Source: Pyrodictium delaneyi (lineage in GTDB: Archaea > Thermoproteota > Thermoprotei_A > Sulfolobales > Pyrodictiaceae). Taken from it: a stretch of DNA of 32,000 nucleotides. The translations under genes were made by a program, and so were the position numbers. The stretch is from positions 990,001 to 1,022,000 of the forward strand of contig NZ_CP013011.1 in NCBI RefSeq assembly GCF_001412615.1, written 5' to 3'. This document shows, in pieces, positions 3,023 to 32,000 of the stretch. The stretch's first letter is position 1. The number at the start of each line of letters is the position of its first letter. Below the pieces are notes generated by a model that had not been told where the DNA came from, made no database searches, and saw nothing but the letters and a program-made list of their open reading frames with translations.

Positions 3023-3113
3023 TGGCGCCGGGGGCGGGATTTGAACCCGCGCGGCCTCGACGGCCACCGGCTCTCCAGGCCGGCCCCTTGGTCCGCTCGG
3101 GCACCCCGGCGCC
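3023..3113 (-). tRNA. tRNA-Ser (anticodon GGA), long variable arm, no encoded CCA
   Basis: The minus strand reads GGCGCCGGGGTGCCCGAGCGGACCAAGGGGCCGGCCTGGAGAGCCGGTGGCCGTCGAGGCCGCGCGGGTTCAAATCCCGCCCCCGGCGCCA. It has a 7-bp acceptor stem (GGCGCCG/CGGCGCC), an anticodon stem CCGGC/GCCGG with loop CTGGAGA, a long extra arm and a GGGTTCAAATCCC T-arm. Confidence 0.85.
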
Positions 3114-6607: not shown

Positions 6608-7099
6608 CTAGCTGGTCTGCTGCCGGGCTTTCTTAAGCATTAGTATTCCTACGAGGTCGTACTGTATAATGGGCAGCGAGATTAGGAATGTAAGTGCTGC
6701 CAGGAGGCTCGGCACTGTCACACATACATCAGAGTCTCCGGGAACTAGCGTCAAGACGGGTATACAACACAGCGACGGGAGCGGTATGGGACGCATTGTG
6801 AAGACTGTTATAGCGCCAAGATATACAGGAGTCAAGAGCCCCAAGCGGAGTAGCGTATATCGACGTACCATCCCTTGGAGTGATGCTATACGAGAGTATA
6901 GTTTCCCCGCACGCCGTCTAACCCGCTTATCAGTGGCATGTTCGATGTTCCGGAAATCACTGACTATCTGCTCTAGCTCAGCCCTCGCGTTAAGATAAGA
7001 GGAGCCTGCTATGCGGTAGAATAGGTACTCCGCGACAAGGACCCCGATAATAGCGAGCATTACCACATAGACCTCGTAAACAAGGATACTGGTAACCAT
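6608..7099 (-). CDS. conserved membrane protein at the adk-rpl34e position, possibly a DUF106/EMC3-like (Oxa1-superfamily) protein
   Basis: The topology reads as TM1, then a basic helical linker ([35 protein letters not shown]), then two more hydrophobic segments. In many archaea the gene after secY-adk is the DUF106 family. The family call rests on position and architecture only. Confidence 0.55.
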
Positions 7100-18691: not shown

Positions 18692-19174
18692 TTACTCTTC
18701 CTCCGCCACAACTACCTCTATATGGCTGTACTTCTTGAACCTAGGGGTGGAGCGGCCGAAGGCGCGTGGCATCCACCTCTTAAGCACACGCCCCTTGTGA
18801 ACAGCTATATGTACAATGCGCAGCTTCTCCGTGTCAAGCCCTTTGACCTCAGCGTTGTTGGCCACATTGTCAAGGAGCTTGAGCAGGATACGAGCAGCCT
18901 TGACCGGATAGCGGCCTATCGGCCACTTGTACCTAGCAGCGAGGCCACGGTGGTGAGCCTGCTTTCTAGCATACCTGCGCACAGGTATAGGCTCCTTACC
19001 AGCAGCAACACGCTCGAGAAACTTACGAGCCTCCTCCAGCCTCATACCACGTATGACACGAGCTAACTCGACAATCTTCTTGTACGATATGGGCGCATCC
19101 CATACCATAGCCTTAGCTGAACGCTCCTCGTCAACTCGTACTGAGTAATGCCATGTCGGCAACCCGAGGCCCAC
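18692..19174 (-). CDS. rpl22: 50S ribosomal protein L22 (uL22)
   Basis: AKAMVWDAPISYKKIVELARVIRGMRLEEARKFLERV...IVHIAVHKGRVLKRWMPRAFGRSTPRFKKYSHIEVVV. GTG start at 19174. Confidence 0.9.
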   Translation of the reverse strand: MGLGLPTWHYSVRVDEERSAKAMVWDAPISYKKIVELARVIRGMRLEEARKFLERVAAGKEPIPVRRYARKQAHHRGLAARYKWPIGRYPVKAARILLKLLDNVANNAEVKGLDTEKLRIVHIAVHKGRVLKRWMPRAFGRSTPRFKKYSHIEVVVAEEE

Positions 19175-19221
19175 CTCTCTTGCTACAGCATCCCCAGGAG
19201 GCGCTCACAGCACTGCACGCC

Positions 19222-19228
19222 TAAATAA
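19222..19228 (-). promoter_or_regulatory. TATA-like box (TTATTTA) about 50 nt upstream of the rpl22 start
   Basis: The minus strand reads ...cacTTATTTAggcgtgcag... upstream of GTG 19174. A new promoter is needed if rpl22 is no longer co-transcribed with rpl23. Motif only, with no TSS data. Confidence 0.3.
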
Positions 19229-19677
19229 GTGAATAGAGCGCTACCGGATAGTATCTACGGAGCTGCCGGGGATGAGCGAGCTGACCTGCACAGAGCACAC
19301 GCCGTGACGAGAAGACCATCTGTTGGCGACCCTCGATTCCTCTACTACACCGTAAGAAGTGAAAGTGTTAGGGAGGCCTGACGCCTAGGGGTGGAGCCTC
19401 CACGCGCTCACCGAGCCCCGAGCGACACGGGGCACTCGCGCGGGCCTGCTCCAGCCTAGTGTAGGATCAGACACCTCTATCAAGTCTTCTCTATATTCGC
19501 CCAAGATGCTCCAGTATCCCGACGACCTTTGGATAATGGATGGTGTTGGGGGATTACAATACAGTCTAGGAGGCACATTATACTATATACACTGAACAAG
19601 GATCAGAGTAGAAGTGTGTACCAAATATAGTGGGATACAATGGATATAGACGCCATCTTAAAACCATCGTATGGTGG

Positions 19678-19938
19678 TTAGAGTAGGCCTAGCCGTGCGG
19701 CCACATCAGTGGCGCTGTACTCCTTGGCCAGCTTAACGTAGGCTTTCTTCTCGCCACGGGGAGTTATTAGGGTGTTAACCTTCTCTACCTTGACTCCAAA
19801 CGCTTGTTCAACCGCCCTCTTGATATCATGTTTAGTGGCCTTCCTATCTACTATGAATGTCAGCGTGTTCTGCTCCTCGATTAGTCTCAACGCTTTCTCG
19901 CTCTGTACCGGACGTATTATGATACTCCAGGCGCTCAT
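19678..19938 (-). CDS. rpl23: 50S ribosomal protein L23 (uL23)
   Basis: [64 protein letters not shown]. Confidence 0.9.
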
Positions 19939-19952
19939 TGTACGACACCCCC

Positions 19953-20783
19953 TTAGGCTAGTAGTATTCCATCAAACCTCTTAGATAGTTCACTCAGTGC
20001 GGACTTGCTAACTACTGTTAGTCTCCCAGGTACACCGCCAGGAGCAAGCTGTAGCACGTTGACATGCCAAGGGTCTGCTACATCTACACCAGGTAGGCTT
20101 GAGACAGCCCTTGCAAGTGGAGACTTGTGGTTGCTTAGTATGAAGAGTATACTCCGCGGTGTTATGTACCGCCTCCCGCGACGCTTACCCTTACCAGCGC
20201 GTATCCTTGTCCTCTCCTTTGCGCGCTCTATGTCGACCCAGACGCCTAGCTTCTCTAGGAGTGCACGTGCCTCGCGAACCCTGGTTATAGCTGTCTCAAC
20301 CTCATCATCTATGACTATTGGGAGGACCTCTGCCGTGAACTTGTGGCCACGCTTTTCGACGAATTCCTTCCTAGCAGTAGCAGCCAGCGCCGAAGCTGTA
20401 GCAAGCTTCTTCTCCTTCTTGTTGATCTCCTCGTGTATCCTCTTCTCTACGCGAGGTGGGTGCGCCAGGTGACCGCCTACAGCAGAGTTTATGAAGGCTG
20501 CACGACCTAGGCCGGGGATGCGAGGCACTCTGGCAATACCTAAGCCTACTCCAAAGCTCCTAGCAGTCGTCCTCTTGCCAGCCATGGGGTCGCGGCCCTT
20601 AGGCTGGAGTCTCGCTGTGAACTCTGATAGGAATGCGCGTCTTATCAGGTCGACGCGTACCGGCAGCCCATAGACCTTGGGTAGCGCTACCTCGCCGCTC
20701 TTTTCGCCTGCAACGTTGAATACCGGGACGACTGGCGGCTCCGCCGCTAGTAGGAATACCATAGAGCCCACTTTACCTGCCAT
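19953..20783 (-). CDS. rpl4: 50S ribosomal protein L4 (uL4)
   Basis: [27 protein letters not shown]...[10 protein letters not shown]. The likely start is ATG at 20762 (MVFLLAAE...). Confidence 0.9.
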
Positions 20784-20820
20784 AGTATCGCACCCCAGGG
20801 GCTGCTGCCATGCTAAAGGG

Positions 20821-21864
20821 TTAATTGCCTTGCTTGCTCTGTAAGCTGATGTATGTTATCTTAGGTGCTGCCTCTGGGATCCAGCGTGGCCTCACTGGGT
20901 GGCGGAGTACTATCGGTCTCTTGGGTGTGCCTGGTATGCTTCCAGCCAGCATCACGTAAGTGCTCCTCACTATACCGTAGTGGAGGAAGCCTCCAGCAGG
21001 TGTTACCTCTAGACCATTCTCGCCTATCTTTATGATGCGCTTGTTGTACTCTGTTCTCCTGTGGAAGCCCATCTGGCCCGGCTGGGGTACCTCGCTCCAC
21101 GAGAACGTCGTCGCGGGGCCTCTGCTACCGGGACCGCTGCGGCTACCCTTCCTGTGCTTGTGCCACTTGGGCAGCTCCTTTACACCAAACCTCTTTATCA
21201 CGCCCTGGAAGCCCTTACCCCTGGTTACCGCTATTACGTCTACGAATTGACCCTCCTTGAAGACGTCTGTTATCTTGAGTGGGTTGCCGAGGAGTTTAAC
21301 GGCATAGTTAAACCTCTCGTCTATGCTGTTCCCGCCACCTATCTTTATCTCTATGAGGTCTGGCTTCTTCTTGCTTAGACCGCCTACGAGCCTCGGTTGT
21401 GTAGCAGCTATTATTCTTACATCGTATACCTTTTCGAGTCTCTCTTCAAGCTTTTTGATCGCCTTCTCGGTATCAGGGAAGCGTAGCCGGGGTATCGCAC
21501 GGTATATGTCGAGCTTATACTTCTCTATGAGGGTTTCAGGCTGAGCCCATGCCTCACCTAGAGTGTAGAGGCCTATGTTTGGATCGTAGCCGTATACACG
21601 GACGGCTGTGACTATCATCGGTGGTGCTTCAACAACCGTTACTGGCATGAATATCTCTCTACCCTGCGTAAGCGAGCCAGGCTCATCGTCTATCACGAAT
21701 ACGTGAGTCATTCCGGCCTTGTAGGCTAGGAATGCAAGCGGTAGAGGCGTCTCACTCTGAACCTCTGGCCACGTTTTGATCCTGGGGACTATGCTGGAAG
21801 CTCTCTTCCTAGGTCTTACAGCCAGGCTGCCTCTACGAGGCGCGTGCTTCTTTCTTGCGCCCAC
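20821..21864 (-). CDS. rpl3: 50S ribosomal protein L3 (uL3)
   Basis: HAPRRGSLAVRPRKRA...FLAYKAGMTHVF...VTRGKGFQGVIKRFGVK..PRKHKHRKGSR-type motifs. Confidence 0.95.
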   Translation of the reverse strand: MGARKKHAPRRGSLAVRPRKRASSIVPRIKTWPEVQSETPLPLAFLAYKAGMTHVFVIDDEPGSLTQGREIFMPVTVVEAPPMIVTAVRVYGYDPNIGLYTLGEAWAQPETLIEKYKLDIYRAIPRLRFPDTEKAIKKLEERLEKVYDVRIIAATQPRLVGGLSKKKPDLIEIKIGGGNSIDERFNYAVKLLGNPLKITDVFKEGQFVDVIAVTRGKGFQGVIKRFGVKELPKWHKHRKGSRSGPGSRGPATTFSWSEVPQPGQMGFHRRTEYNKRIIKIGENGLEVTPAGGFLHYGIVRSTYVMLAGSIPGTPKRPIVLRHPVRPRWIPEAAPKITYISLQSKQGN

Positions 21865-21957
21865 TAGACACCACCGCCGTCATGCCGGTACTAGAGTCTA
21901 CCCCCGTCTCACGTGGGCTCCCCGGTTACTAGCTTTTAACCCTAAGCCTTCAATGAC

Positions 21958-22848
21958 CTACTGCTCCAGGAACATGTTGTAGATTGCTAGTGTCGCTGCT
22001 AGAGCTTCTTCAACACGGACAGTACGTGTACCCTGATTCGGTATAGTATTGTATATCCTATCAAAGACCGCTTCGGGCTCTAAGCCCTCACTATTAGCTA
22101 TCTCAAAAAGCCCTTTGTCGGGGGCTCCAAAGAATAACGCTATCCCGCCTCGGCTAGCGGCTTCCCTAGCATCTCTCACTGCCTTGTCCGCTGTTAGAAC
22201 CTCGCCGAAACGGCTAGTGGCTACTCGGAGCAACCCGCTAGCAGTCTCTAGTGCTTCCCGGAGACCTCGTACTACGGTTATACTGAACCCTGTATAGATT
22301 CCTGCCTCGTCCTCCCTTAGTATGTGTAGCTTGGGAGGATTTAGCGACTCGATTCTAACGAGTACACGTTTACTACGCTTTAACCAGTGGGGTTTCGCAC
22401 ACTTAACATACTTGCCCAACCCAGCATCGAGCACCACTAGGCCACCAAGGTCGCGTACAACCAGCGCTTCGCGAATCTCGCCCACGTGAGGCCCGCCTAC
22501 ACCGTGCGTAGGCAGCTGTAGCGGCGGGAGGATACCAACATACCTTAGCTCCGGCTTGTATGGGTAAAGCTTTTTCTTCAAGTAGGGAGCCGTAAGCATA
22601 TAGCCTATTATTTCCTCCATCAACTTAGCATGTTTCTCAGCATCATTTCTGTCAACATATACTATAAGCCGTGTAGCACGGAATACAGCTAGTATTCTTG
22701 CAAGGATACCAGTCTTAATAGTCTTTAACATCAAACCATGTTCTGTCGAAAGATAGGAGGCTGGCACTGCTACAGCTAGCTCAAGCCTCCTAGCTGAGGG
22801 TACACTACGGCTCTTCATCCCTAGTAGCCTCGAGCCAGGATGCTTCAC
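21958..22848 (-). CDS. DUF171/COG2106 SPOUT-class (trefoil-knot) putative RNA methyltransferase
   Basis: LAVAVPASYLSTEHGLMLKTIKTGILARILAVFRATRLIVY...GILPPLQLPTHGV fits my memory of the family found directly upstream of rpl3 in archaea. The start is GTG at 22848 (an AATTAT box about 27 nt upstream suggests a leaderless mRNA) or ATG at 22818. Confidence 0.7.
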   Translation of the reverse strand: MKHPGSRLLGMKSRSVPSARRLELAVAVPASYLSTEHGLMLKTIKTGILARILAVFRATRLIVYVDRNDAEKHAKLMEEIIGYMLTAPYLKKKLYPYKPELRYVGILPPLQLPTHGVGGPHVGEIREALVVRDLGGLVVLDAGLGKYVKCAKPHWLKRSKRVLVRIESLNPPKLHILREDEAGIYTGFSITVVRGLREALETASGLLRVATSRFGEVLTADKAVRDAREAASRGGIALFFGAPDKGLFEIANSEGLEPEAVFDRIYNTIPNQGTRTVRVEEALAATLAIYNMFLEQ

Positions 22849-23432
22849 CCGGAGCTAGAATTAAGCAAACATAATTGGCACCCATACGCATAAGGACTCG
22901 TCGCCGCGAGCTACGAACAACCACGGCCATATACACAGCGGCGAAGGCAGTGTAAAAACACATCACACTGGTATTAGATGTCTCACCGAAATCGGTGTGG
23001 TTACCGACGCCCCTTGCCACGACGCTGCTGTTGCTGCCTAGCCTGCTTGGCTGCGGCTTTTACCTCCTCCTTTGCCATGAATAGGCTTGTCCTCTGCCGG
23101 CCACCCATCCTCTACACCCCGCAAGGGACAGGGAAGAGGGCTAGGTACATTACTGCTACGCTTCCTCTCCCATATCCTGGGCCGGTGACGTGTTTGCCGA
23201 GTGCTGAGACATCGGACTGATTCAGTTGTGCTGAATATCCCCTTCTACTGAGGCCGTCATGTAGAATCTACGCAACCGTTGATCATTATATGGGGCTCAG
23301 ACGGGTTCACCTCGTCACCGCATAGCCAGGAATGCTAGGCGTTTGCACCCCTCATCACAGCCCGTAGACGGAAGGGTAGGTCCTGATAAATATTGAGCAG
23401 CGCGGACGCCGCTAAACTAGGGCCTGGGGGAC

Positions 23433-24008
23433 TTGGCTAGGCGAAGGCTACGGTTTAGCTGCTTATTCTGTGAGCACTGTTGCTATTTTAGTGCTGAGCA
23501 CGAGATGCCAATAGTCTTCCCCTGGGAGAAGCGGGAACTAGAAAAAATAGCAGCGGAAATGAATATTAAGCTAGGGTTCAAACCATCGCAAGCCTTCATA
23601 GACGAGGACGGGGCATGTGTCGTAACACTCTATAAGTGGATCATACAAGGGTTCTGCCCGTTTTTTAATCGAGCCAGTAGGCATTGTATGATACACGAGG
23701 ATAAACCGCTAGCGTGTAAGATGTATCCTCTGCTTGTAGAGCTTCCCTCTGGAAAGCTAATGGCCTCCGGTAAATGCGACTGGATAAAACAGCACGGACC
23801 AAAACTGATGGAGCATCTGTCTACACGCCCAGAGCTTATACCAGAACTATTCCCTAACGAGTTTGAGGCCGCAAAAAGAGTATTCATAGAGTTCATGACT
23901 ATAAATTCATTTATAGAGAGACACGGGCTACGGCCAATGGACGTTAGTAAATTAAGTGAATGCGCAAGCGTTTACGACATAGACGAGTATATGGCGAGGT
24001 CTGAGTAG
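23433..24008 (+). CDS. YkgJ/UPF0153-family cysteine-cluster protein (CxxCxxCC zinc/iron-chelating domain)
   Basis: N-terminal FSCLFCEHCC matches CxxCxxCC, and a later FCPFFNRASRHCMIHEDKPLACKMYP matches the second half of the family signature. The first motif lies upstream of the first ATG, so a TTG start at 23433 is required. Confidence 0.75.
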   Translation: MARRRLRFSCLFCEHCCYFSAEHEMPIVFPWEKRELEKIAAEMNIKLGFKPSQAFIDEDGACVVTLYKWIIQGFCPFFNRASRHCMIHEDKPLACKMYPLLVELPSGKLMASGKCDWIKQHGPKLMEHLSTRPELIPELFPNEFEAAKRVFIEFMTINSFIERHGLRPMDVSKLSECASVYDIDEYMARSE

Positions 24009-24010
24009 CC

Positions 24011-24289
24011 TTGGGGAAGGAGCGGCGCCTCGTTAGGATATTCTTCAACACATATTATACTGATGTAGCTGAGGCTGTTCTCAAGGAGCTTAAGAGCCTA
24101 GGCTACGAGGTAAAGGCTACTAATTCTAGAGTAGTCCCAGAGCTATACTACGTTGAGATAAATGTCGGCAATACCGATCCCAGAGATGTTGCAGAAAAAG
24201 TACGGGCCCTGCTAGAAGATACTAGGGAAAAACACAGAGGCCTTGTGTTCGGCATCAAAGTGTATAGTATCGATACGTCTTCATCATAG
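24011..24289 (+). CDS. hypothetical small protein (92 aa, predicted alpha/beta), coupled to the YkgJ-like gene
   Basis: The ORF starts 2 nt after the upstream stop and has no internal Met, so it needs a TTG start. The alternating beta/alpha pattern (RIFFNTYY...AEAVLKELKSLGYEV...YYVEINV...) looks protein-like. No family recognised. Confidence 0.45.
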   Translation: MGKERRLVRIFFNTYYTDVAEAVLKELKSLGYEVKATNSRVVPELYYVEINVGNTDPRDVAEKVRALLEDTREKHRGLVFGIKVYSIDTSSS

Positions 24290-24314: not shown

Positions 24315-26333
24315 CTAACTGCGGAGTATTCTACGCATAATGGATGGTATGTCCTGGGGAGTTCTTATGATGTAGAATCTTGTATAGGGCTTGATTCTGT
24401 TCAGCACTCTGGCGTCATGCTTTGGTGGAAGAACTATGGTTATTTGCCATCCTTTTAATCTTAGTTCACGGATCACCTCTTCGACAGTGGCATCGGTTGC
24501 TATGGTTTGTTTGAGATCACTTATGAGCACTATATGACGTGGTGTTGAGCCTTTAGCTGCTGAGCGCAGAGCATCAACTATGTTTGTGTAGCCTGAAAAC
24601 CTCGTCGAGAGTATTAGGTCTACTACATGAAGTGGGTTGATGTGCTTTATGTTTCTGTATATTGTTATGTTTTCGTCGAATACTATGAGCTTTGATATGC
24701 TCGTGGCCAGCGCAGATGCTGCTAGAATCGTGTAGAGTGCGTATGACCGCATACTGCCGCTCTTATCGACGACCACTATGTATTGTCTTGTAGTGTGCTT
24801 GGTTATCCTGGTTAACGGGCTGGGGTTAAAGCGTACTATCTTTTCTAGGGTCTTGCGTATGTGAAGTCTTCCCTTGGTTTTGCTTAGACGGATTTTCCGA
24901 GACGGTCTTAGCCCGGTATTTCCACGAGATTCACGCCAGAGACTCCGCATAAGCATTATCGCGTAGCTTCGTACTCTCTTATTGTTTGCATCGTTATATA
25001 TAGTGCTGAGTAGCTTTAGTGCCTCGAACACATCCATATTCTTTACAATGCTCTTAATGAGTGAATAGATGTCGCCACGTTCTGCGGCATCAATTAATTG
25101 CTTAAGCCGCGTTATCTCAGATTCTACTATTTGCGCTAAATCAATGTTTTCGTAATGGTCTTTTATTTTACTCCATTCTTCTACTGCACGTGTATACTCA
25201 TATTCTGCATAGTCCAATAGGGCACGTGTATCGTCAACTAGACTTTTTGCGAGATACTTTTTCGCGGTAGCAAGCCTATTAAGGACTTCTAGGGCCTCGC
25301 TTTGGCTTGATCCTATACTACTTAGTAGGCTTATCTGGTTCCTATTGAGGATCTCTGTTACGACACCGCGTCGGGAAGCTTGCATACCTATAGCTTTGAG
25401 AGCTATTTCGACTGCACCCTCCTTATTGTACGTAGAGAGTTCAGCTACGACATCTAGTACTGCCTCTTTTCCAAAGTCTTTGACTGCCCTTTCTGCTAGC
25501 TTTGGGTTCTGCTCGAGTAGATAGCGCAAATGCTTCTTCTGGAGCAGTTTTTCTTTGCGTAGAATCTCGTAGATGCTTGATGCGTCGCTATAGTGTTCTC
25601 CTTTGTTTATCTTTTCCTCTATGGTCCTTGACACAATGTATCTTAGATGTTCATTCTTGCCAGCGTGCCGATAGAGTCTTGTTAGCTCGTCTATGCTGAG
25701 ATCTTCGAGATCTATGTAGTTGAGTAGTTCAGTTCCCATTGACGCTACTATGCTACTGTTACGGGTTATGTTACGTCTTATTACATCCTTTATTGCATCT
25801 TTATAGTCTCTGTAGTGTCTTGCTAGCTGTTCTGCTATTCTACGCGCCTGGCTACTGTGTACGACATACTCGCCTTTTCGTCCTCTACGTATTATTCCTA
25901 GTAGCTTGAGTCTAGCGTATGCACTCTGTGCTTTCTCGCTAGTCAGTCTCCGATGGCGTATCTTTGAACCATATCGTAGTCCTAGTGCCTGCAGATCCTT
26001 ATCTATTTCAGCCTCTATGTGTTTTGCAACATATGCTTGGCTGGGCTGACGCCGTTTTGTGATTTCTCTAACTATCTCATGTATTATGGCGCCTTCACGC
26101 ATTCTCTTGGCGTATACAGATGAAAGAACGAACGCTATATCGTCTGGAGCAAGGGTTTTTGCACCGGATACCGCCATGTACAGTGCTAGTAGGCGGGCGG
26201 CCTCGACTACTTCAGCCGTTGATACGTGAAGCCCCCTCTTTCTCGCTTCTAGTGCAGTCTCGTAAGCAATCTGGTACATAGCTTGATCGCTGAGCTTATG
26301 GGTGTAGCCCGAATACTTTCTCGAGGGCCTCAT
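24315..26333 (-). CDS. VWA/MIDAS-domain protein, CoxE-like C-terminus, with an N-terminal helical region of about 515 aa and unknown function
   Basis: The C-terminal 157 aa (about 24318-24788) carry a complete MIDAS motif: VVVDKSGSM (DxSxS, D codon at 24765-24767), FSGYTNIVDAL (Thr) and VLISDL (Asp). They are preceded by GRLHIRKTLEKIVRF..., the basic segment typical of CoxE-like VWA proteins. A GGAGG SD lies 9-13 nt before ATG 26333, and the gene overlaps the MoxR gene by 38 nt. Confidence 0.85.
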   Translation of the reverse strand: MRPSRKYSGYTHKLSDQAMYQIAYETALEARKRGLHVSTAEVVEAARLLALYMAVSGAKTLAPDDIAFVLSSVYAKRMREGAIIHEIVREITKRRQPSQAYVAKHIEAEIDKDLQALGLRYGSKIRHRRLTSEKAQSAYARLKLLGIIRRGRKGEYVVHSSQARRIAEQLARHYRDYKDAIKDVIRRNITRNSSIVASMGTELLNYIDLEDLSIDELTRLYRHAGKNEHLRYIVSRTIEEKINKGEHYSDASSIYEILRKEKLLQKKHLRYLLEQNPKLAERAVKDFGKEAVLDVVAELSTYNKEGAVEIALKAIGMQASRRGVVTEILNRNQISLLSSIGSSQSEALEVLNRLATAKKYLAKSLVDDTRALLDYAEYEYTRAVEEWSKIKDHYENIDLAQIVESEITRLKQLIDAAERGDIYSLIKSIVKNMDVFEALKLLSTIYNDANNKRVRSYAIMLMRSLWRESRGNTGLRPSRKIRLSKTKGRLHIRKTLEKIVRFNPSPLTRITKHTTRQYIVVVDKSGSMRSYALYTILAASALATSISKLIVFDENITIYRNIKHINPLHVVDLILSTRFSGYTNIVDALRSAAKGSTPRHIVLISDLKQTIATDATVEEVIRELRLKGWQITIVLPPKHDARVLNRIKPYTRFYIIRTPQDIPSIMRRILRS

Positions 26334-27399
26334 CTACAATTTCCTCCTCTCCAACCCTCTTGTAGAGAACTATAGTTGCTGCATCTACGACTTCACTTAC
26401 TGTCACTTGCTGTTTGCCACGCAAGGATGCTAACCTGCCAGCTATTCGGGACCATAGAACCGTGTCTGCAGGCCCCGGCTTATATGCAGCTTTTTGGCGT
26501 AGAAGGTTAACTACCTGTACCATTCCCTCGAGTATCTTAGGTTCTAGCTCGACATCTACATCGTATCTGAGCCGGATTATCTCTATCTCGACTTCAGGGG
26601 GCGGATAGTTGAATGGTATTCTTACAACTCTCCGTAGAAATGCATCACTTAGCTCGCTCTGAGCATAGTCCTCTGGGTTACTGGTGAATATTACTTGGAA
26701 ACCCTCGCCTTTTGCGTAAAAAATCTTCCTGAGTTCAGGTACTATTATGCGACGTTTATCTATTATATCTAGGAGCATGTTTTGGAATTCTTCATTACTT
26801 CTCCTTATCTCGTCGACCAGTACACCAGCGTCGAGTATTAATGCTGCAAGCAGGGGGCGTGGTATGAAACTTTTCTCGTTAAACCCATACTTAAACGCCA
26901 TGAGTGGGTGAAAGTCTCCAATAACCCTATATTCGTCATAGTTCTCACTACATGGTATGACAAGAGCTGGCTTGCCTGCCCATAGTGTTAGTATTGCTTC
27001 ACCTATCTCCGTCTTTCCTGTACCTGGCGGCCCTTCGAAGAGCACTGGCCGCCCTGCAAGAAAAGCCGCTACTACTAACGTTACTAGCTTCTTATCTACA
27101 AGCAGTTTATACTCGGTTTTTAGGATTTCCATCATTTTATTAACGTTCCTAATTGGTTTTCGTTTATATTTACTCATTATCTCAGAATATATATTAACAA
27201 CCTTCTCTTCAACACTTTCCATAGCGTTATCCGGGTTATTCTCTTCACCCATGCCAACCATTCCTACTATAGCCTCTACATCTAGACCCTCTTGACTCTC
27301 CACATTCTTTCTGTCCATTACTACACCCTTCATTACTATTCCCAGAAGGTGTAGGGGATAATTTACTACTCCACCAGGTTCTTTACATACCTTGGCCAT
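26296..27399 (-). CDS. MoxR-family AAA+ ATPase (CoxD/APE2220-like) with an acidic N-terminal extension of about 70 aa
   Basis: Walker A is LFEGPPGTGKT (27011-27034) and Walker B is GVLVDEIRRS. The single AAA+ module of about 300 aa is typical of MoxR, and the gene pairs with a downstream VWA gene. A GGAG SD lies 4 nt before ATG 27399. Confidence 0.88.
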   Translation of the reverse strand: MAKVCKEPGGVVNYPLHLLGIVMKGVVMDRKNVESQEGLDVEAIVGMVGMGEENNPDNAMESVEEKVVNIYSEIMSKYKRKPIRNVNKMMEILKTEYKLLVDKKLVTLVVAAFLAGRPVLFEGPPGTGKTEIGEAILTLWAGKPALVIPCSENYDEYRVIGDFHPLMAFKYGFNEKSFIPRPLLAALILDAGVLVDEIRRSNEEFQNMLLDIIDKRRIIVPELRKIFYAKGEGFQVIFTSNPEDYAQSELSDAFLRRVVRIPFNYPPPEVEIEIIRLRYDVDVELEPKILEGMVQVVNLLRQKAAYKPGPADTVLWSRIAGRLASLRGKQQVTVSEVVDAATIVLYKRVGEEEIVDEALEKVFGLHP

Positions 27400-27520
27400 T
27401 GTCTCCTCGGAGAACCCTAGGTCATATTTGATGCGCTTAATACTAATTATGGTCCGACTGTACCGCTATTAGATGTTATGTGCTTCCCTTTCATAGTATA
27501 CTAAGTCGGGGTACGCTAGT

Positions 27521-27973
27521 TTGGGCAAGGCGAGAAGAAGTAAAGAGGACAATGTTATCTATAGTGTATGGATACGTCACGGTCCTGATACAATCCACTA
27601 TGATATGGTATTCGAAGAAGATTGTATAAGACTTATCTATCTGGGTGAGTATTGGCAGCGTGTTAGACCTAGAACCGGACTACAACAGCGAGTAGACCTG
27701 TTTATATACTCGCTTAGGAAGCGACGCGAACGAAACATGGGAGAGGCTAGTCATGGATTTACTATTGATTATTGCAGCATAAAGAGCTACAATTTAGTTA
27801 GACCGCGTATCGCATCACCTCAAGGCGATGTAACCCCTGGTGTTCTAGAGCTGACGCTCCGGGACGGGAGACGCGTACGTATAGAGTTCTCACCTAAGGT
27901 CTATGAGGTTGTTAAGTCTGCTGTAAAGAGATATGTGATCAGGGGCATAGAGAAATGTAGGGATGGCGGCTAG
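27521..27973 (+). CDS. hypothetical protein (150 aa), divergent from the MoxR gene
   Basis: ORF with a TTG start preceded by GGGGT. Basic N-terminus, mixed beta-rich sequence (VLELTLRDGRRVRIEF). No family recognised. Confidence 0.45.
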   Translation: MGKARRSKEDNVIYSVWIRHGPDTIHYDMVFEEDCIRLIYLGEYWQRVRPRTGLQQRVDLFIYSLRKRRERNMGEASHGFTIDYCSIKSYNLVRPRIASPQGDVTPGVLELTLRDGRRVRIEFSPKVYEVVKSAVKRYVIRGIEKCRDGG

Positions 27974-28032
27974 CGCGTCCTAGGGCGATGAAGAGGGCCC
28001 GATAGACTGAAATGTGTTAGTGTGATGAAGGA

Positions 28033-28593
28033 TCAACCGTCGGAGCCTTTGGATAACTTATTCACGAATCTTATGAATATGTAGTCCTTTGACGTTTCAC
28101 CTACATATCTCCCATAATTTGGCAAACATGCTTTCATACTGTGTGCCTTCTTTAGGCTCGTGACTACTGCTGCAGTCTTAGTCACACGGTCTATCTCATT
28201 TATAGCCCTTAGTTTATCATCTACAAGGTCTATTACTGTGAACGATAAGGTATAGTCTATGCTTTTTACACGTAGCGGTATATTCTCAGCATCAGCCTCC
28301 ACAAGTTCTGCAAGATGCCTTAAGTTGAGCATGCTTATGCGACTCTTTGCACGTTCTAACATCCCGGGCGATAGATCAAGACATATATACAATTTTACTT
28401 CAGCTAGTTTGCTTGTAGACTTTAGGTATTCCAGTAATAGCCCGGTTCCACAACCGTCATCTAATACTGTCCCACACACTCCGACAACATTTAGTGCCAA
28501 CTTGTATTTTTCAAACTGCTCTTCCCGATAGAGCTCGTCGTATCCAGCGCTTGTCACGTTGTATTTCTCTCTTAGTACAGCCTTTCTACCCAA
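28033..28593 (-). CDS. class I SAM-dependent methyltransferase (substrate unknown)
   Basis: Motif I is TVLDDGCGTGLLLEYL and the post-I acidic residue lies in ICLDLSPGMLERAK. About 186 aa. Motif I precedes the first ATG, so the start must be TTG at 28593 or a nearby GTG. Confidence 0.75.
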   Translation of the reverse strand: MGRKAVLREKYNVTSAGYDELYREEQFEKYKLALNVVGVCGTVLDDGCGTGLLLEYLKSTSKLAEVKLYICLDLSPGMLERAKSRISMLNLRHLAELVEADAENIPLRVKSIDYTLSFTVIDLVDDKLRAINEIDRVTKTAAVVTSLKKAHSMKACLPNYGRYVGETSKDYIFIRFVNKLSKGSDG

Positions 28594-28764: not shown

Positions 28765-28797
28765 AAAATATTGCTTGTGATCATTTTGCGTAAAAAC
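28765..28797 (-). terminator. oligo-T tracts (T5 and T4) downstream of rps19
   Basis: The minus strand after stop 28818 reads cgctgtatatgctcccgtatgTTTTTacgcaaaatgatcacaagcaataTTTTcatt. This fits rpl2-rps19 being an independently terminated unit. Confidence 0.35.
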
Positions 28798-28817: not shown

Positions 28818-29294
28818 CTACTTTAGGGCCACGTGTAAGCTGCTTCTTGTAGCCTTGAGTCCAGGCTCTCCGTGCTGTACCTGGCGGCATGTTGGGCTGA
28901 ACTCACCTAGGTAATGGCCTATCATTTCAGGTGTTATGCGCACCGGCACGAATTCCTTTCCATTGTAGACCGCTATCGTCATTCCAATCATTTCTGGCAG
29001 TATTATCATGTCTCTCACATGTGTTTTTACTACGACTTTTTTGCCTTGTAGTATCTTCTGACGAGCCTTACGGATCTTCCAAAGGAGTCTACGCTGAGGG
29101 TCTGTTAGGCCTCTTAGTAAGCTTCTGCGCTGGCGAGCAGGTAGTAGCTTTATGAATGTGTCCATGGGCATTGAGAGTAGCTCTTCTAGGGTGTAGCCGC
29201 GGTAACGGAACTTTCTCCACTCTTGCGGCAGTGTCTCAAGCCACTTTTTCATTTCCTCATCTAATTGTGGTTTTACACGCTGCATCGTATACAC
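28818..29294 (-). CDS. rps19: 30S ribosomal protein S19 (uS19)
   Basis: [39 protein letters not shown]...[29 protein letters not shown]...[23 protein letters not shown]. The likely start is ATG at 29285, preceded by GGGTG. Confidence 0.93.
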
Positions 29295-29333
29295 CCAGGG
29301 TAGTGGGGATTGGTGACAAGTGGGGGTTTAACG

Positions 29334-30050
29334 CTACCTCTTCTTGCGGCCAGTCGAGCGCGCTGCTATGTGGCCGACCTTTCTGCCTGGTGGAGCATCT
29401 CTGGATACTGTTGTTGGGAAGCTTGGACTCTGGTGGCTACCACCACCATGTGGGTGGTTCACAGCGTTCATTGCTACACCGCGTACGCGTGGCCATACAT
29501 GGGCCTTAGCCTTCCACTTGTAGTAGGCCGCACCAGCTTTGAGTAGGGGCTTCTCTAAGCGACCAGCACCTGCAACTATTCCTATAGTTGCTCTAGCATC
29601 ATTAGGGACTTCTTTCACTTTCCCGCTGGGTAACTGTACTATAGTCTTATTACCGCTACGACCAAGTATGACAGCATAAGCCCCGGAAGAGCGGGCTAGC
29701 TTCCCACCATCACCAGGCCTTATCTCTATATTATATATCTGCGTACCCTCAGGTATCTTGCCTACTGGAAGTATGTTACCGTTAGCAGGTTTAGCATCCG
29801 GCCCGACCTCTATTATTTGGCCAACATACATACCTTCAGCTGCAGGGATCCAGAACTCCTCACCATTCTCGAGCACTACATGAGCTAGTGGAACCCAGCG
29901 GCCGGGATCATGCACTAGTTCCACTACGCGTCCTCTTAGAGTGGCTGGCGATAGAGGCGGGTATTTGGCCGGCGCTGGGTGTAACCACGGCTTACTGCGA
30001 TATACTGGCGAGCCCTTACCTCTACGCTGTACTATCAAGCGCTTACCCAT
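29334..30050 (-). CDS. rpl2: 50S ribosomal protein L2 (uL2)
   Basis: MGKRLIVQRRGKGSPVYRS...GNILPVGKIPEGTQIYNIE.RPGDGGKLARSSG...VRGVAMNAVNHPHGGG. Confidence 0.95.
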   Translation of the reverse strand: MGKRLIVQRRGKGSPVYRSKPWLHPAPAKYPPLSPATLRGRVVELVHDPGRWVPLAHVVLENGEEFWIPAAEGMYVGQIIEVGPDAKPANGNILPVGKIPEGTQIYNIEIRPGDGGKLARSSGAYAVILGRSGNKTIVQLPSGKVKEVPNDARATIGIVAGAGRLEKPLLKAGAAYYKWKAKAHVWPRVRGVAMNAVNHPHGGGSHQSPSFPTTVSRDAPPGRKVGHIAARSTGRKKR

Positions 30051-31461
30051 AGCGTAGCACCCGTCCCCAGTGCGTCGCCCCTGGTATACTCTGACTCTTA
30101 ACTGTTATCGGTATAGGGAGTATCTTGAAAGGAATCGCTCTCTGCGCCTGCTGGTAGCGGAGAAGAGCTTCGCCAACACCTAGTCTACGAAGCACATCGA
30201 GATCCTCATACACGACACCACTATACCTACTGACATCTCTTATGTATACATCATCTACTGATCCGAACATAATCACATTGCTGATATTATTCCATACTTC
30301 AGAGCTATAGTCGCTTGGCTGTTGCGATGAAAGAACGAGACTAATATTGCTACTCCTGCCTTCACGAACTAACCTTCTAACAACATCACTGTTCTTAATT
30401 CTCCAAAACTCGTCTATTACAAGTACCGAACTCACACTATTGTTTCGAAGCACATCAAAGATGGTATCTAATATAGTTTCTAGCTGGATATACTTTTCAT
30501 TCTCACTTAGATACGCCAAGTCTAATACCATAATACCGTGGAAGCTATCACTAAATAAGTTGGAGACAATTAAGTGATGATAACTATATCCATCCTCTAC
30601 TACAACATGTTTTGCTAGTCTGGTCCCCTTCAAAAACCTCCAAACATCTCCCTTGGGATCTACCAACACTGCTTTTACGTCGTAAAGTAACGTAGCCAGT
30701 AATGCAACTAGGACTGCAAGGGTTGTCTTCCCCCTACCAGTTGGCCCCACAATTAAAGTATGTTGAGCACCCCTATTATCCCATAAAGGTAGCCCGACAA
30801 GTTTTCCCAACACCAGGTCGTGTCCGATAGGAACGGTTTTCACACCATCAAGGATCTTACCTAACATGCGTACATACTCCATCCAACTTAAACTCGAGCC
30901 TATAATGCTACTGAGTGATTGAATAATATTCCCACTATTGTTTTTTAAAAAACTCACACTTAGGCATTTACGTTTAGGTTTACAACCAAGTACGGCAAGC
31001 ATATCAATAACACTATTGTAATTTTCTTCAATACTTTTTGTACTACCACATACTAGTATGTATAGTGCCGGCTTGACGGGATCATCATAAACCATAATGT
31101 TTTCATATATCTTCCTAAGCACCTCAAGTTTGTTTCTTGCACGCATATTGTTAGGATTGCGTTCTAGCTCAACCTCGTAGGATAGTATTTTGGACTCTAG
31201 AATCCTCGCAGCATAATTACCTCTAACATGTTTATAGAGTAGCATTATGCCACATATTCTTCTATCCAGTAACTTAGATTTGTTGCCCAGTAGCTTTGTG
31301 AAGCATGTCTCGTCGCCCTTAATCTCGATGAGTACGCCAAGAACGCCATCTGTTAGTTCCGAGACACAAAGAGTATTCACAACTTTATCTCTACCCTTTG
31401 TAAGCTTTACTAGCTTGTATAAATACGTAGCAATGGTACTTATAATCATGTAAATCACCAA
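30043..31461 (-). CDS. VirB4/TrbE/CedB-like P-loop ATPase (AAA_10/DUF87-like), low GC
   Basis: Walker A is LIVGPTGRGKTT (30724-30747) and Walker B context is VLVIDEFWRI, resembling the hhhDEAW of VirB4/TraC-type ATPases. A later LVLSSQQPSD follows (TQ..D-like), and there is an N-terminal non-ATPase domain of about 230 aa. The more likely start is ATG at 31449, preceded by GGTGA at -11..-7. The stop overlaps the rpl2 ATG. Confidence 0.75.
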   Translation of the reverse strand: MVIYMIISTIATYLYKLVKLTKGRDKVVNTLCVSELTDGVLGVLIEIKGDETCFTKLLGNKSKLLDRRICGIMLLYKHVRGNYAARILESKILSYEVELERNPNNMRARNKLEVLRKIYENIMVYDDPVKPALYILVCGSTKSIEENYNSVIDMLAVLGCKPKRKCLSVSFLKNNSGNIIQSLSSIIGSSLSWMEYVRMLGKILDGVKTVPIGHDLVLGKLVGLPLWDNRGAQHTLIVGPTGRGKTTLAVLVALLATLLYDVKAVLVDPKGDVWRFLKGTRLAKHVVVEDGYSYHHLIVSNLFSDSFHGIMVLDLAYLSENEKYIQLETILDTIFDVLRNNSVSSVLVIDEFWRIKNSDVVRRLVREGRSSNISLVLSSQQPSDYSSEVWNNISNVIMFGSVDDVYIRDVSRYSGVVYEDLDVLRRLGVGEALLRYQQAQRAIPFKILPIPITVKSQSIPGATHWGRVLRYG

Positions 31462-31631
31462 CTTAGAGTTCTTTTAACAATCATAAATAGAACAATATTT
31501 ATCAATGATATCAGTATTATTGTTATATTTTTTGAATATAATCCCTCAATAACACCATATAATGATAATGCTAAAGCAATATGTAGAGACCTTCTGAATG
31601 TTATATTCGTTATAGCCTTTGTCTGCTTCAT
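31455..31631 (-). CDS. 58-aa two-helix hairpin membrane protein (candidate VirB2/CedA1-like pilin); below the ORF-track cutoff
   Basis: My own translation gives MKQTKAITNITFRRSLHIALALSLYGVIEGLYSKNITIILISLINIVLFMIVKRTLSW*. A GGTGA SD lies 8-12 nt upstream of the ATG, and the stop is 5 nt before the ATPase ATG at 31449. Basic N-terminus followed by two hydrophobic helices joined by a short turn. Confidence 0.45.
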   Translation of the reverse strand: MKQTKAITNITFRRSLHIALALSLYGVIEGLYSKNITIILISLINIVLFMIVKRTLSW

Positions 31632-31656: not shown

Positions 31657-31938
31657 TTAGTCGAATATTATGCGGGGCGACGATGCACCTATCAGCCTAG
31701 CAAAACTTATGGTCATCATAGACATTATGGTCAAGTATGAAAATACAGTTACAGGAAACGCGGTTCCGTAGACTATGTAGTACACTATCGCGTCCTCCAT
31801 GGTCATGTTAGGGTAATTGTAGCCTTCACTTATTTCTAAATTATATGTATAGTTATCTATTCTTTTATTGAATTTAATGCTAAGTAATTTGATGCCGTCC
31901 GGTACTCTTAGACTGAAAATTATTGTCCTTACTTGCAT
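31657..31938 (-). CDS. hypothetical protein with a C-terminal hydrophobic anchor (93 aa), first complete gene of the AT-rich operon
   Basis: A GGAGG SD lies just upstream of ATG 31938. The N-terminal part of about 55 aa is beta-rich, followed by AIVYYIVYGTAFPVTVFSYLTIMSMMTISFARLIG. The stop is 25 nt before the 58-aa ORF. An upstream ORF (…HRLENSSKNIM*, stop at 31965) continues beyond the window. Confidence 0.45.
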   Translation of the reverse strand: MQVRTIIFSLRVPDGIKLLSIKFNKRIDNYTYNLEISEGYNYPNMTMEDAIVYYIVYGTAFPVTVFSYLTIMSMMTISFARLIGASSPRIIFD

Positions 31939-32000
31939 ACCCCTCCAAGGGTTCGTTAGTTCAACTACATTATATTCTTCGAAGAATTCTCTAGCCGGTG

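Follow-up and report, generated by a model that had tools for sequence, protein, structure and literature searches.

A probably ancient, family-wide relocation of the uL2-uS19 gene pair within the ribosomal-protein cluster of Pyrodictiaceae

Few gene orders in Bacteria and Archaea are as strongly conserved as uL3-uL4-uL23-uL2-uS19-uL22. In Pyrodictium delaneyi, the archaeal ribosomal-protein supercluster occupies the minus strand of the 32,000-nucleotide (nt) stretch of DNA analyzed here (the window; coordinates below are on its minus strand unless marked otherwise), and in this cluster rpl2 and rps19, the genes for uL2 (L2) and uS19 (S19), are located 9.6 kb upstream of rpl22 and ahead of DUF171-L3-L4-L23. 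Breaks in such clusters have been described: in an account of Asgard and other archaea, uL3-uL4-uL23-uL2 can be apart from the large cluster, for which the abstract names uS19 as the first gene and the listed core starts from uL22, and some Lokiarchaeota have uL2 on its own (PMC10833476). These split S10-type clusters resemble what we see in that breaks fall next to uL2, and an isolated uL2 (locus L010) and an isolated uS19 (locus L178) occur among our loci as well; the difference is that in our case uS19 accompanies uL2, both genes standing on the 5' side of uL3-uL4-uL23 in one and the same locus (PMC10833476). Measured against the canonical archaeal S10-spc cluster, all genes are likewise single copy and co-oriented, and the cluster is intact down to secY-adk-L34e-cmk-L14e-Cbf5, but uL2-uS19 stands before DUF171-uL3-uL4-uL23 with about 6 kb of other genes in between, and the whole appears to fall into three units. 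A literature search (Hyperthermus, archaea) found no published description of the Pyrodictiaceae order; the order itself is visible in public annotations since the deposit of the Hyperthermus butylicus genome.

Along the direction of transcription, the window contains the 3' part of a cedA-like gene, a 58-aa open reading frame (ORF), a cedB-like gene, rpl2, rps19, a methyltransferase gene, orf150 (opposite strand), MoxR, VWA_CoxE, orf92 and CxxCxxCC (both opposite strand), DUF171, L3, L4, L23, a 503-nt gap and L22, after which S3, L29, RNase P p29, S17 and further genes lead to secY, adk, L34e, cmk, L14e and Cbf5. The canonical contiguous uL23-uL2-uS19-uL22 order is not found in the window, where L23 is followed by the 503-nt non-coding gap and then L22. 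The rpl2 gene (29334..30050) encodes 238 aa with a Pfam Ribosomal_L2_C match at 1.4e-46, and its product is 78-92% identical across Pyrodictiaceae and 67-76% identical to outgroup proteins. The rps19 gene (28818..29294; Pfam Ribosomal_S19, 3e-33) has an ORF from GTG 29294; its likely start is ATG 29285 (155 aa), the gene caller chose ATG 29252, and the N-terminal extension of S19 can be aligned in relatives (147-156 aa at 85-92% identity). The DUF171 (SPOUT methyltransferase)-L3-L4-L23 block (19678..22848, with DUF171 at 21958-22848 and L23 at 19678-19938) now lies downstream of the pair, and rpl22 (18692..19174) is the first gene past the vacated site. An earlier sequence-only reading of this DNA had proposed that L2 and S19 were displaced upstream of DUF171-L3-L4-L23, and the ORFs and Pfam matches, with these genes as the sole copies in the window, bear this out.

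To place this order among relatives, we scanned species-representative genomes with L2, which gave 191 loci, and compared the closest ones gene by gene. The order HerA-like/Lhr/cedA1/cedA/cedB/L2/S19/(methyltransferase)/MoxR-VWA module/orf92/CxxCxxCC/DUF171/L3/L4/L23/gap/L22 is present in the metagenome-assembled genome (MAG) loci L002, L003, L004, L007, L008, L009 and L011, with L006 as the exception among longer contigs, and also in the finished genomes of Hyperthermus butylicus (CP000493), Pyrolobus fumarii (CP002838) and Pyrofollis japonicus (AP028634), the contexts of these three being obtained through MoxR homologs. In six metagenome contigs, L22 comes directly after L23, and the canonical L23-L2-S19-L22 order is found in Desulfurococcaceae (L012, L014 and L015) and in Thermococci. 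We conclude that the position of L2-S19 very probably reflects an ancient change of gene order, inherited vertically and diagnostic of the Pyrodictiaceae, and not a recent event in this genome. The block interchange of essential genes suggested by the sequence-only reading is thereby supported, given the canonical order in outgroups and the permuted order in the family. That reading had also held that the rearrangement would be ancient and not island-associated if the arrangement were ancestral across the order, with homologous flanks and no compositional break; what we find is an ancestral arrangement with homologous flanks at the level of the family, not of the order, together with a compositional break that is real. 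The source of the window is a 9-contig draft and several of the relatives are MAGs, which could point to an assembly or binning artefact, but the same order in finished CP000493, CP002838 and AP028634 and in independent metagenome contigs leaves such an artefact a negligible chance.

Within this conserved frame, the interval between S19 and DUF171 is variable. The methyltransferase gene follows S19 in most family members and is absent from L007 and L009, while the Pyrolobus interval carries an extra isoleucyl-tRNA synthetase (IleRS) gene and a PP-loop gene; the interval kept changing after the relocation. The family-wide permutation itself would serve as a rare-genomic-change marker for Pyrodictiaceae, useful for MAG placement.

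The second described system at this locus is the Ced system (CedA, CedA1, CedA2 and CedB) for crenarchaeal DNA import (PMC9905601). The genes upstream of rpl2 resemble it in their order cedA1-cedA-small ORF-cedB, in a pilin match and in a VirB4/HerA-like ATPase, and differ from it in that the Pyrodictiaceae have an essential ribosomal-protein pair attached to the 3' end of cedB, with an 8-nt overlap in this genome (PMC9905601). The cedA1 gene lies upstream of the cedA-like gene, and its product (6665-6937 in locus L081, beyond the window end) matches PDB 8dfu_B 'Pilin protein' (Ced-type pilin) at E 1.9e-25. The cedA-like gene (L081 6955-8394), cut by the window end so that only its 3' part is inside (31657..32000), encodes a 479-aa multi-pass membrane protein with a precomputed PF27251 match, and such precomputed matches are on record for Ced genes. 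The cedA2-like small ORF (31455..31631; 58 aa, GC 0.27) has a counterpart at the same position in H. butylicus, Pyrolobus, Pyrofollis and Desulfurococcaceae. The VirB4/HerA-type ATPase gene (30043..31461; Pfam AAA_10, 7.6e-15) has NF041017 (DNA import protein CedB) as its best NCBIfam match at 7.2e-24; since the 84 bits of this match are far under the 700-bit equivalog cut-off, we call the ATPase CedB-like only. Judged by its genes, the low-GC flank upstream of the pair is a Ced-type DNA-import cluster, import activity in the family being a prediction from those genes. Both Desulfurococcaceae L012 and the complete genome CP072660 have the same cedA1/cedA/small ORF/cedB series directly before DUF171-L3; therefore, with the Ced cluster abutting DUF171-L3 in outgroups, we regard it as an ancestral neighbour and not as an insert.

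The sequence-only reading had drawn on lower guanine-plus-cytosine (GC) content on both sides of the pair. In 500-nt windows, GC is 0.41-0.49 at 24-28.5 kb, 0.35-0.44 at 30-32 kb and 0.47-0.60 in the ribosomal-protein/secY part. When the window is joined to the adjoining 9.3 kb (left) and 8 kb (right) of its contig (NCQP01000001), the low-GC stretch proves to be a single domain at 0.37-0.47 that runs for at least 16 kb, from 23.7 kb in the window to 40 kb or beyond (L081 1-16600). It contains CxxCxxCC, orf92, VWA, MoxR, orf150, the methyltransferase gene, L2-S19, cedB, cedA2, cedA, cedA1, Lhr and the gene for a HerA-like ATPase. Elsewhere in the joined region, ordinary genes on the left have 0.49-0.52 and the ribosomal-protein cluster 0.49-0.58, and the kilobase with L2-S19 reaches up to 0.49. 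The direction of the difference was thus read correctly, but the hand counts (22-47% against 55-58%) overstated it, and the two short flanks are one domain of at least 16 kb. Likewise, the description of the pair as near-native holds for total GC (L2 0.53, S19 0.49) and fails at third codon positions (GC3), where L2 with 0.45 is like the flanks (0.33-0.49), lower than L3, L4 and L23 (0.54-0.60) and at the bottom of the ribosomal-protein range of 0.45-0.65; the 'native' total GC of L2 is owed to its amino-acid composition.

The dip recurs at the orthologous genes of relatives. In 10/10 family genomes, genes on the Ced side and the methyltransferase side are lower in GC than L3-L4-L23 by 0.02-0.14, although the GC of L3-L4-L23 runs from 0.48 to 0.66 across these genomes, and in 9/10 of them the GC3 of L2+S19 is under that of L3+L4+L23 by 0.04-0.10; the same GC3 difference is -0.02 to +0.03 in four outgroups with L2 in place. 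The flanking genes encode membrane or poorly conserved proteins, and their GC is lower at all three codon positions; expression level, amino-acid usage and regional bias are candidate causes of the low-GC domain. Because the dip falls on orthologous genes in every one of these family genomes, it is a long-standing property of those genes and cannot date a recent insertion, so that the sliding-window check recommended by the sequence-only reading finds a real compositional break that is no mark of recent arrival. We read the GC3 of L2-S19 as partial equilibration to the new neighbourhood, which argues for age. A GC dip beside essential genes need not, as a caution for similar cases, indicate a mobile element.

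This bears on the proposal that a horizontally acquired low-GC element was inserted here and recently carried or displaced L2-S19. The locus shares some traits with a genomic island: the GC dip on both sides of the pair is real (0.37-0.47 over at least 16 kb against 0.539; the P. delaneyi Hulk genome has 53.88% GC [PMC5556600]), the flanking genes evolve fast (identity among relatives is 27-35% for CedB and 25-37% for VWA) and one of them derives from a type IV secretion system, and the S19-DUF171 interval varies through the Pyrolobus insertions, the missing methyltransferase gene and an inverted MoxR-VWA module. In contrast to an island, the region is syntenic and has been passed down vertically throughout the family, and in part in the sister family as well, with no recombinase, att sites or tRNA target. 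None of the ORFs tested between 23.4 and 31.5 kb matched an integrase, recombinase or transposase in Pfam, NCBIfam, PHROG or PADLOC; up to 40 kb, the region contains Lhr, HerA-like and Ced genes together with small ORFs that have no annotation. PHROGs and PADLOC gave no virus-specific or defence family for the flanking proteins, their matches being a generic ATPase and a methyltransferase, and the sole tRNA of the window (3023-3110) does not adjoin the region. Short or att-like repeats shared by the breakpoints, which the sequence-only reading had suggested looking for, were not found above chance, and the one 18-nt inverted repeat (78%) at the borders of orf150-MoxR-VWA (24268-24285 / 27987-28004) we treat as chance. 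Presence among relatives is not patchy: apart from L006, each of the longer family loci compared has the flanks in synteny, which extends over four genera and many MAGs. The Ced flank adjoins the operon in outgroups as well, and genomes that differ widely in GC all show the dip. Lhr, CxxCxxCC, the methyltransferase, VWA and CedA1 have within-family distances that follow those of the ribosomal proteins (r 0.67-0.89), whereas the distances of CedB, saturated at ~30% identity, and of MoxR, with a narrow range, do not. An inserted element is, on this evidence, very improbable, and the mediation by such an element that had been proposed is not upheld.

Even less probable is a loss of the native L2-S19 with a foreign (xenologous) copy in its place, the other possibility raised from the sequence. 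The GC3 of L2, lower than that of L3, L4 and L23, would fit such a copy, but the shift is common to nine of the ten family genomes and matches the local neighbourhood. L2 and S19 identities (78-92% within the family and 64-80% to outgroups for the two together) are in step with those of L3, L4 and L23, and the L2/S19 distance matrices correlate with the L3/L4/L23 mean at 0.94. Neighbour-joining trees of L2+S19 and of L3+L4+L23, built by simple distance methods only, are congruent, both giving a monophyletic family with Pyrolobus and L007 as early-branching members.

With an old and inherited change as the preferred reading, the question becomes how the new order arose. We propose that the ancestral state was as in Desulfurococcaceae, cedA1-cedA-cedA2-cedB followed by DUF171-L3-L4-L23-L2-S19-L22, and that DUF171-L3-L4-L23 and L2-S19, then adjacent, swapped positions on the branch leading to the family. 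The outcome would have been (i) an L2 start at the stop codon of cedB and a gene-free gap between L23 and L22, and (ii) variable cellular genes (the methyltransferase gene, orf150-MoxR-VWA, orf92 and CxxCxxCC) between S19 and DUF171. The likeliest mechanism, to which we tentatively give somewhat less than half of the weight, may be a tandem duplication of the segment from DUF171 to S19, after which the first DUF171-L23 copy and the second L2-S19 copy were lost. This is favoured because the cell would never be without an essential gene, whereas cut-and-paste movement would endanger essential genes, and it would explain both the cedB-L2 junction and the empty L23-L22 gap. A swap of two co-oriented blocks requires at least three inversions, against one duplication and two losses.

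A stepwise route through a split operon, in which MoxR-VWA entered beside S19 first and transpositions or inversions around the module followed, is a serious though less likely rival; it concerns the mechanism only and would leave the age and the vertical inheritance unchanged. The arrangement L2-[module]-S19-L22 is still seen in Desulfurococcaceae MEX13E and in L013, the module lies near an isolated S19 in L178 and just after S19-methyltransferase in all Pyrodictiaceae, and it is inverted in basal and most other family members, so that, with M for the module, B -M A is reached from A B M by 3 inversions. On the other side, this route needs 3-4 reversals, or two transpositions and an inversion, L2 and S19 must be reunited, the module is not near ribosomal-protein genes in L177, and the branching order of the outgroups is not resolved in the tree.

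As to the expression of the relocated pair, the old operon would now be divided. The cedB TAA stop overlaps the L2 ATG by 8 nt (window 30043-30050, ATGGGTAA, read from the sequence), which ties an essential ribosomal-protein gene physically to the final gene of a DNA-import cluster. In relatives, the end of cedB varies between some 85 nt ahead of the L2 start and 28 nt within L2. In archaea, a TATA box stands about 26 nt before the transcription start and is followed by a short leader that bears a Shine-Dalgarno motif. A TATA-like box, GATAACAGTTAAGAG (30095..30109; TTAAGA at -51 to -46 from the L2 ATG), lies inside the cedB coding sequence as a putative promoter of L2-S19, and a Shine-Dalgarno-like motif, GGGGACGGGTG (30058..30068), is located 8-18 nt before the L2 start. 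An A/T-rich box about 40-55 nt upstream of L2 is present in 14/14 Pyrodictiaceae loci, whether it falls in cedB or in a spacer: GATAACAGTTAAGAG is common to P. delaneyi, H. butylicus, Pyrofollis, L001 and L011, and the variants in other loci are TTTAAA, ATTAAAG, CTTAAGAAAG or GTTAAAGG. The GGGG(T)G run before the L2 start is kept in all loci. Going by established knowledge of archaeal promoters, the upstream box and the GGGG(T)G run have the expected promoter and leader layout.

Further signals lie at the ends of the proposed units. A T5 tract, a putative archaeal terminator, is found 21 nt after the S19 stop (28792..28796) with two T4 tracts further on, and a T4-T5 tract occurs 7-34 nt past the S19 stop in 6/10 family loci. 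T tracts follow L23 in most loci (T4 in this genome), and a TATA-like box, CTTATTTAG (19221..19229), 47-55 nt upstream of the L22 start, is a putative promoter of the L22-S3-... operon; it is conserved as TTATTTAGG / TTTATAGG in L007, L008 and L011, roughly 45-60 nt before L22. The exceptional Hyperthermus MAG locus L006 (11254-20714) has Ced-L2-S19-methyltransferase followed by unrelated housekeeping genes (saccharopine dehydrogenase-like, HypA/HypB and pyrimidine synthesis), without the MoxR module and DUF171-L3, which shows that L2-S19 is able to work when separated from the remaining cluster genes. L2-S19 therefore looks like an autonomous unit. In the model we propose, the old operon would now exist as three units: (i) L2-S19, transcribed from the TATA-like box ~50 nt upstream within the 3' end of cedB, with the GGGG(T)G site for translation and an end at the T tract; (ii) DUF171-L3-L4-L23, ending at the T4 tract after L23; and (iii) L22-S3-..., from its own conserved TATA-like box. 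Both the oligo-T tracts noted after rps19 in the sequence-only reading and its suggestion of an independent unit agree with these observations, the latter through the conserved box, the GGGG motif, the T tract and the L006 context. The locus would thus be a natural experiment in which uL2-uS19 is expressible apart from its usual operon and attached to the end of a DNA-import cluster.

Several points weigh against parts of this account. The promoter, Shine-Dalgarno and terminator assignments are putative and come from motif conservation only, and the 8-nt overlap would still allow read-through from cedB. The low-GC domain is 7-17 points under the genome mean, the one genome-wide value against which it was set. 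No second copy or relic of L2/S19 was found in the window, the rest of the 2.04-Mb genome not having been searched for a divergent copy, and tblastn (E up to 100 / up to 1) returned only noise for L2/S19 in the L23-L22 gap and for cedB, L3, L4, L23 and DUF171 in other spacers; this absence of relics of a lost duplicate leaves the duplication-loss mechanism unproven. The presence of MoxR-VWA between L2 and S19 in the outgroups CP072660 and L013 hints at a complex stepwise history.

The relocation opens no long-standing question by itself, and more promising leads may lie in a small RNA at the vacated site and in the linkage of MoxR-VWA to uS19. In the L23-L22 gap, a K-turn small RNA of about 85 nt (19366..19454) carries the invariant 16-mer GGCUCCACCCCUAGGC at 19398-19383, which contains the palindrome CCUAGG. 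The element is found in the gap of P. delaneyi, H. butylicus, Pyrofollis and most MAGs, including a position between L23 and L22 in L002, L003, L007, L008, L011, L173 and L176, and was not detected in the Pyrolobus gap. A metagenome scan with the 16-mer and a profile filter gave 13 more copies, six of them between L23 and L22 or beside L23 and seven, more divergent, elsewhere (L133, L120, L105, L097, L127, L098 and L145), next to genes for an MFS transporter, a molybdopterin oxidoreductase, a CBS protein, urocanase, Lhr and a HerA-like protein with a Cas4-like neighbour. Because copies stand beside unrelated genes, the RNA would be a free-standing gene in hyperthermophile contigs.

The fold consists of P1, P2, a canonical K-turn (GA opposite a GGU bulge and GA) and P3 (GUGCCCCG/CGGGGCUC), with an invariant UGA. 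The features of a K-turn, namely a canonical (C) stem, a 3-nt bulge, tandem G.A/A.G pairs and a non-canonical (NC) stem, are all present, as known here from sequence. Pairing in the NC stem P2 reaches 93.7%, compensatory changes occur at 5/7 pairs, and the covariation of 0.201 exceeds the 0.101 of shuffles (0/500 reach it), while slid controls fall away. Rfam had no match to the element in the whole window, in the gap or in ten related loci, including none to H/ACA families, and a literature search for the 16-mer gave one unrelated match. The best-supported fold has no two-sided H/ACA pocket, for which reason the element is left unclassified; an ACA lies 15-20 nt past the invariant motif in some family members only.

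The MoxR-VWA module (24315..27973, mixed strands) consists of orf150 (27521-27973, plus strand), a MoxR AAA_5 ATPase (26296-27252/27399, minus strand) and VWA_CoxE (24315-26333, minus strand). It runs in the same direction as the ribosomal-protein genes in P. delaneyi and in H. butylicus, two taxa that the concatenated tree groups as sisters. In Pyrolobus, in Pyrofollis and in seven MAG contigs it is inverted. We had considered the P. delaneyi orientation, which the outgroups share, as ancestral and dropped this after the tree; the orientation in P. delaneyi and H. butylicus is probably a re-inversion in their lineage. Inside the operon, between uL2 and uS19, MoxR-VWA is found in L175 (9373-12950, CP072660) and L013 (6118-8744), where the gene before it is Cren7 in CP072660 and orf92-like in L013, and in L178 (10001-17267) the module is 3.8 kb from the isolated uS19. 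Such linkage to uS19 recurs, but it could also stem from one insertion in an ancestor. Eukaryotic Rea1/midasin combines AAA_5 modules with a MIDAS domain. By analogy, the MoxR-VWA pair might be a ribosome-directed remodelling machine whose insertion broke the operon, the vacated site then being taken by an undescribed K-turn RNA family, but we consider this chain of events quite doubtful.

Among the remaining genes of the S19-DUF171 interval, the class I S-adenosylmethionine (SAM)-dependent methyltransferase gene (28033..28593; Pfam Methyltransf_11, 8e-17) is a conserved neighbour of S19. The genes for the CxxCxxCC protein (23433-24008) and orf92 (24011-24289), both on the plus strand and divergent from DUF171, keep their position in all family loci. 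A candidate C/D box small RNA (23295..23362) lies between the CxxCxxCC gene and DUF171, with a weak Rfam sR1 alignment, a C box GUGAUGA, a C' box GUGACGA, a D box CUGA and a GGC/GCC terminal stem; a ATATTTAT box stands ~30 nt upstream of it, and L101 has a better sR1-like match at the same place (615-679).

Other clusters in the comparison show small departures of their own. In a Desulfurococcales MAG (L010, 2252-3010), uL2 is alone, with a PIN-type toxin gene and small ORFs upstream, a membrane protein gene downstream and no adjoining uL23 or uS19, and in a Thermoprotei MAG (L013, 2600-3016), an uncharacterised 138-aa ORF between DUF171 and L3 is another small insertion in the cluster. Far from the pair, at 1713-2717 of the window, public annotation calls no gene between the P-II gene and the MTS methyltransferase gene; an ammonium-transporter ORF of 334 aa is located there, which covers just positions 1-318 of the 399-position Pfam model and may be truncated or frameshifted.

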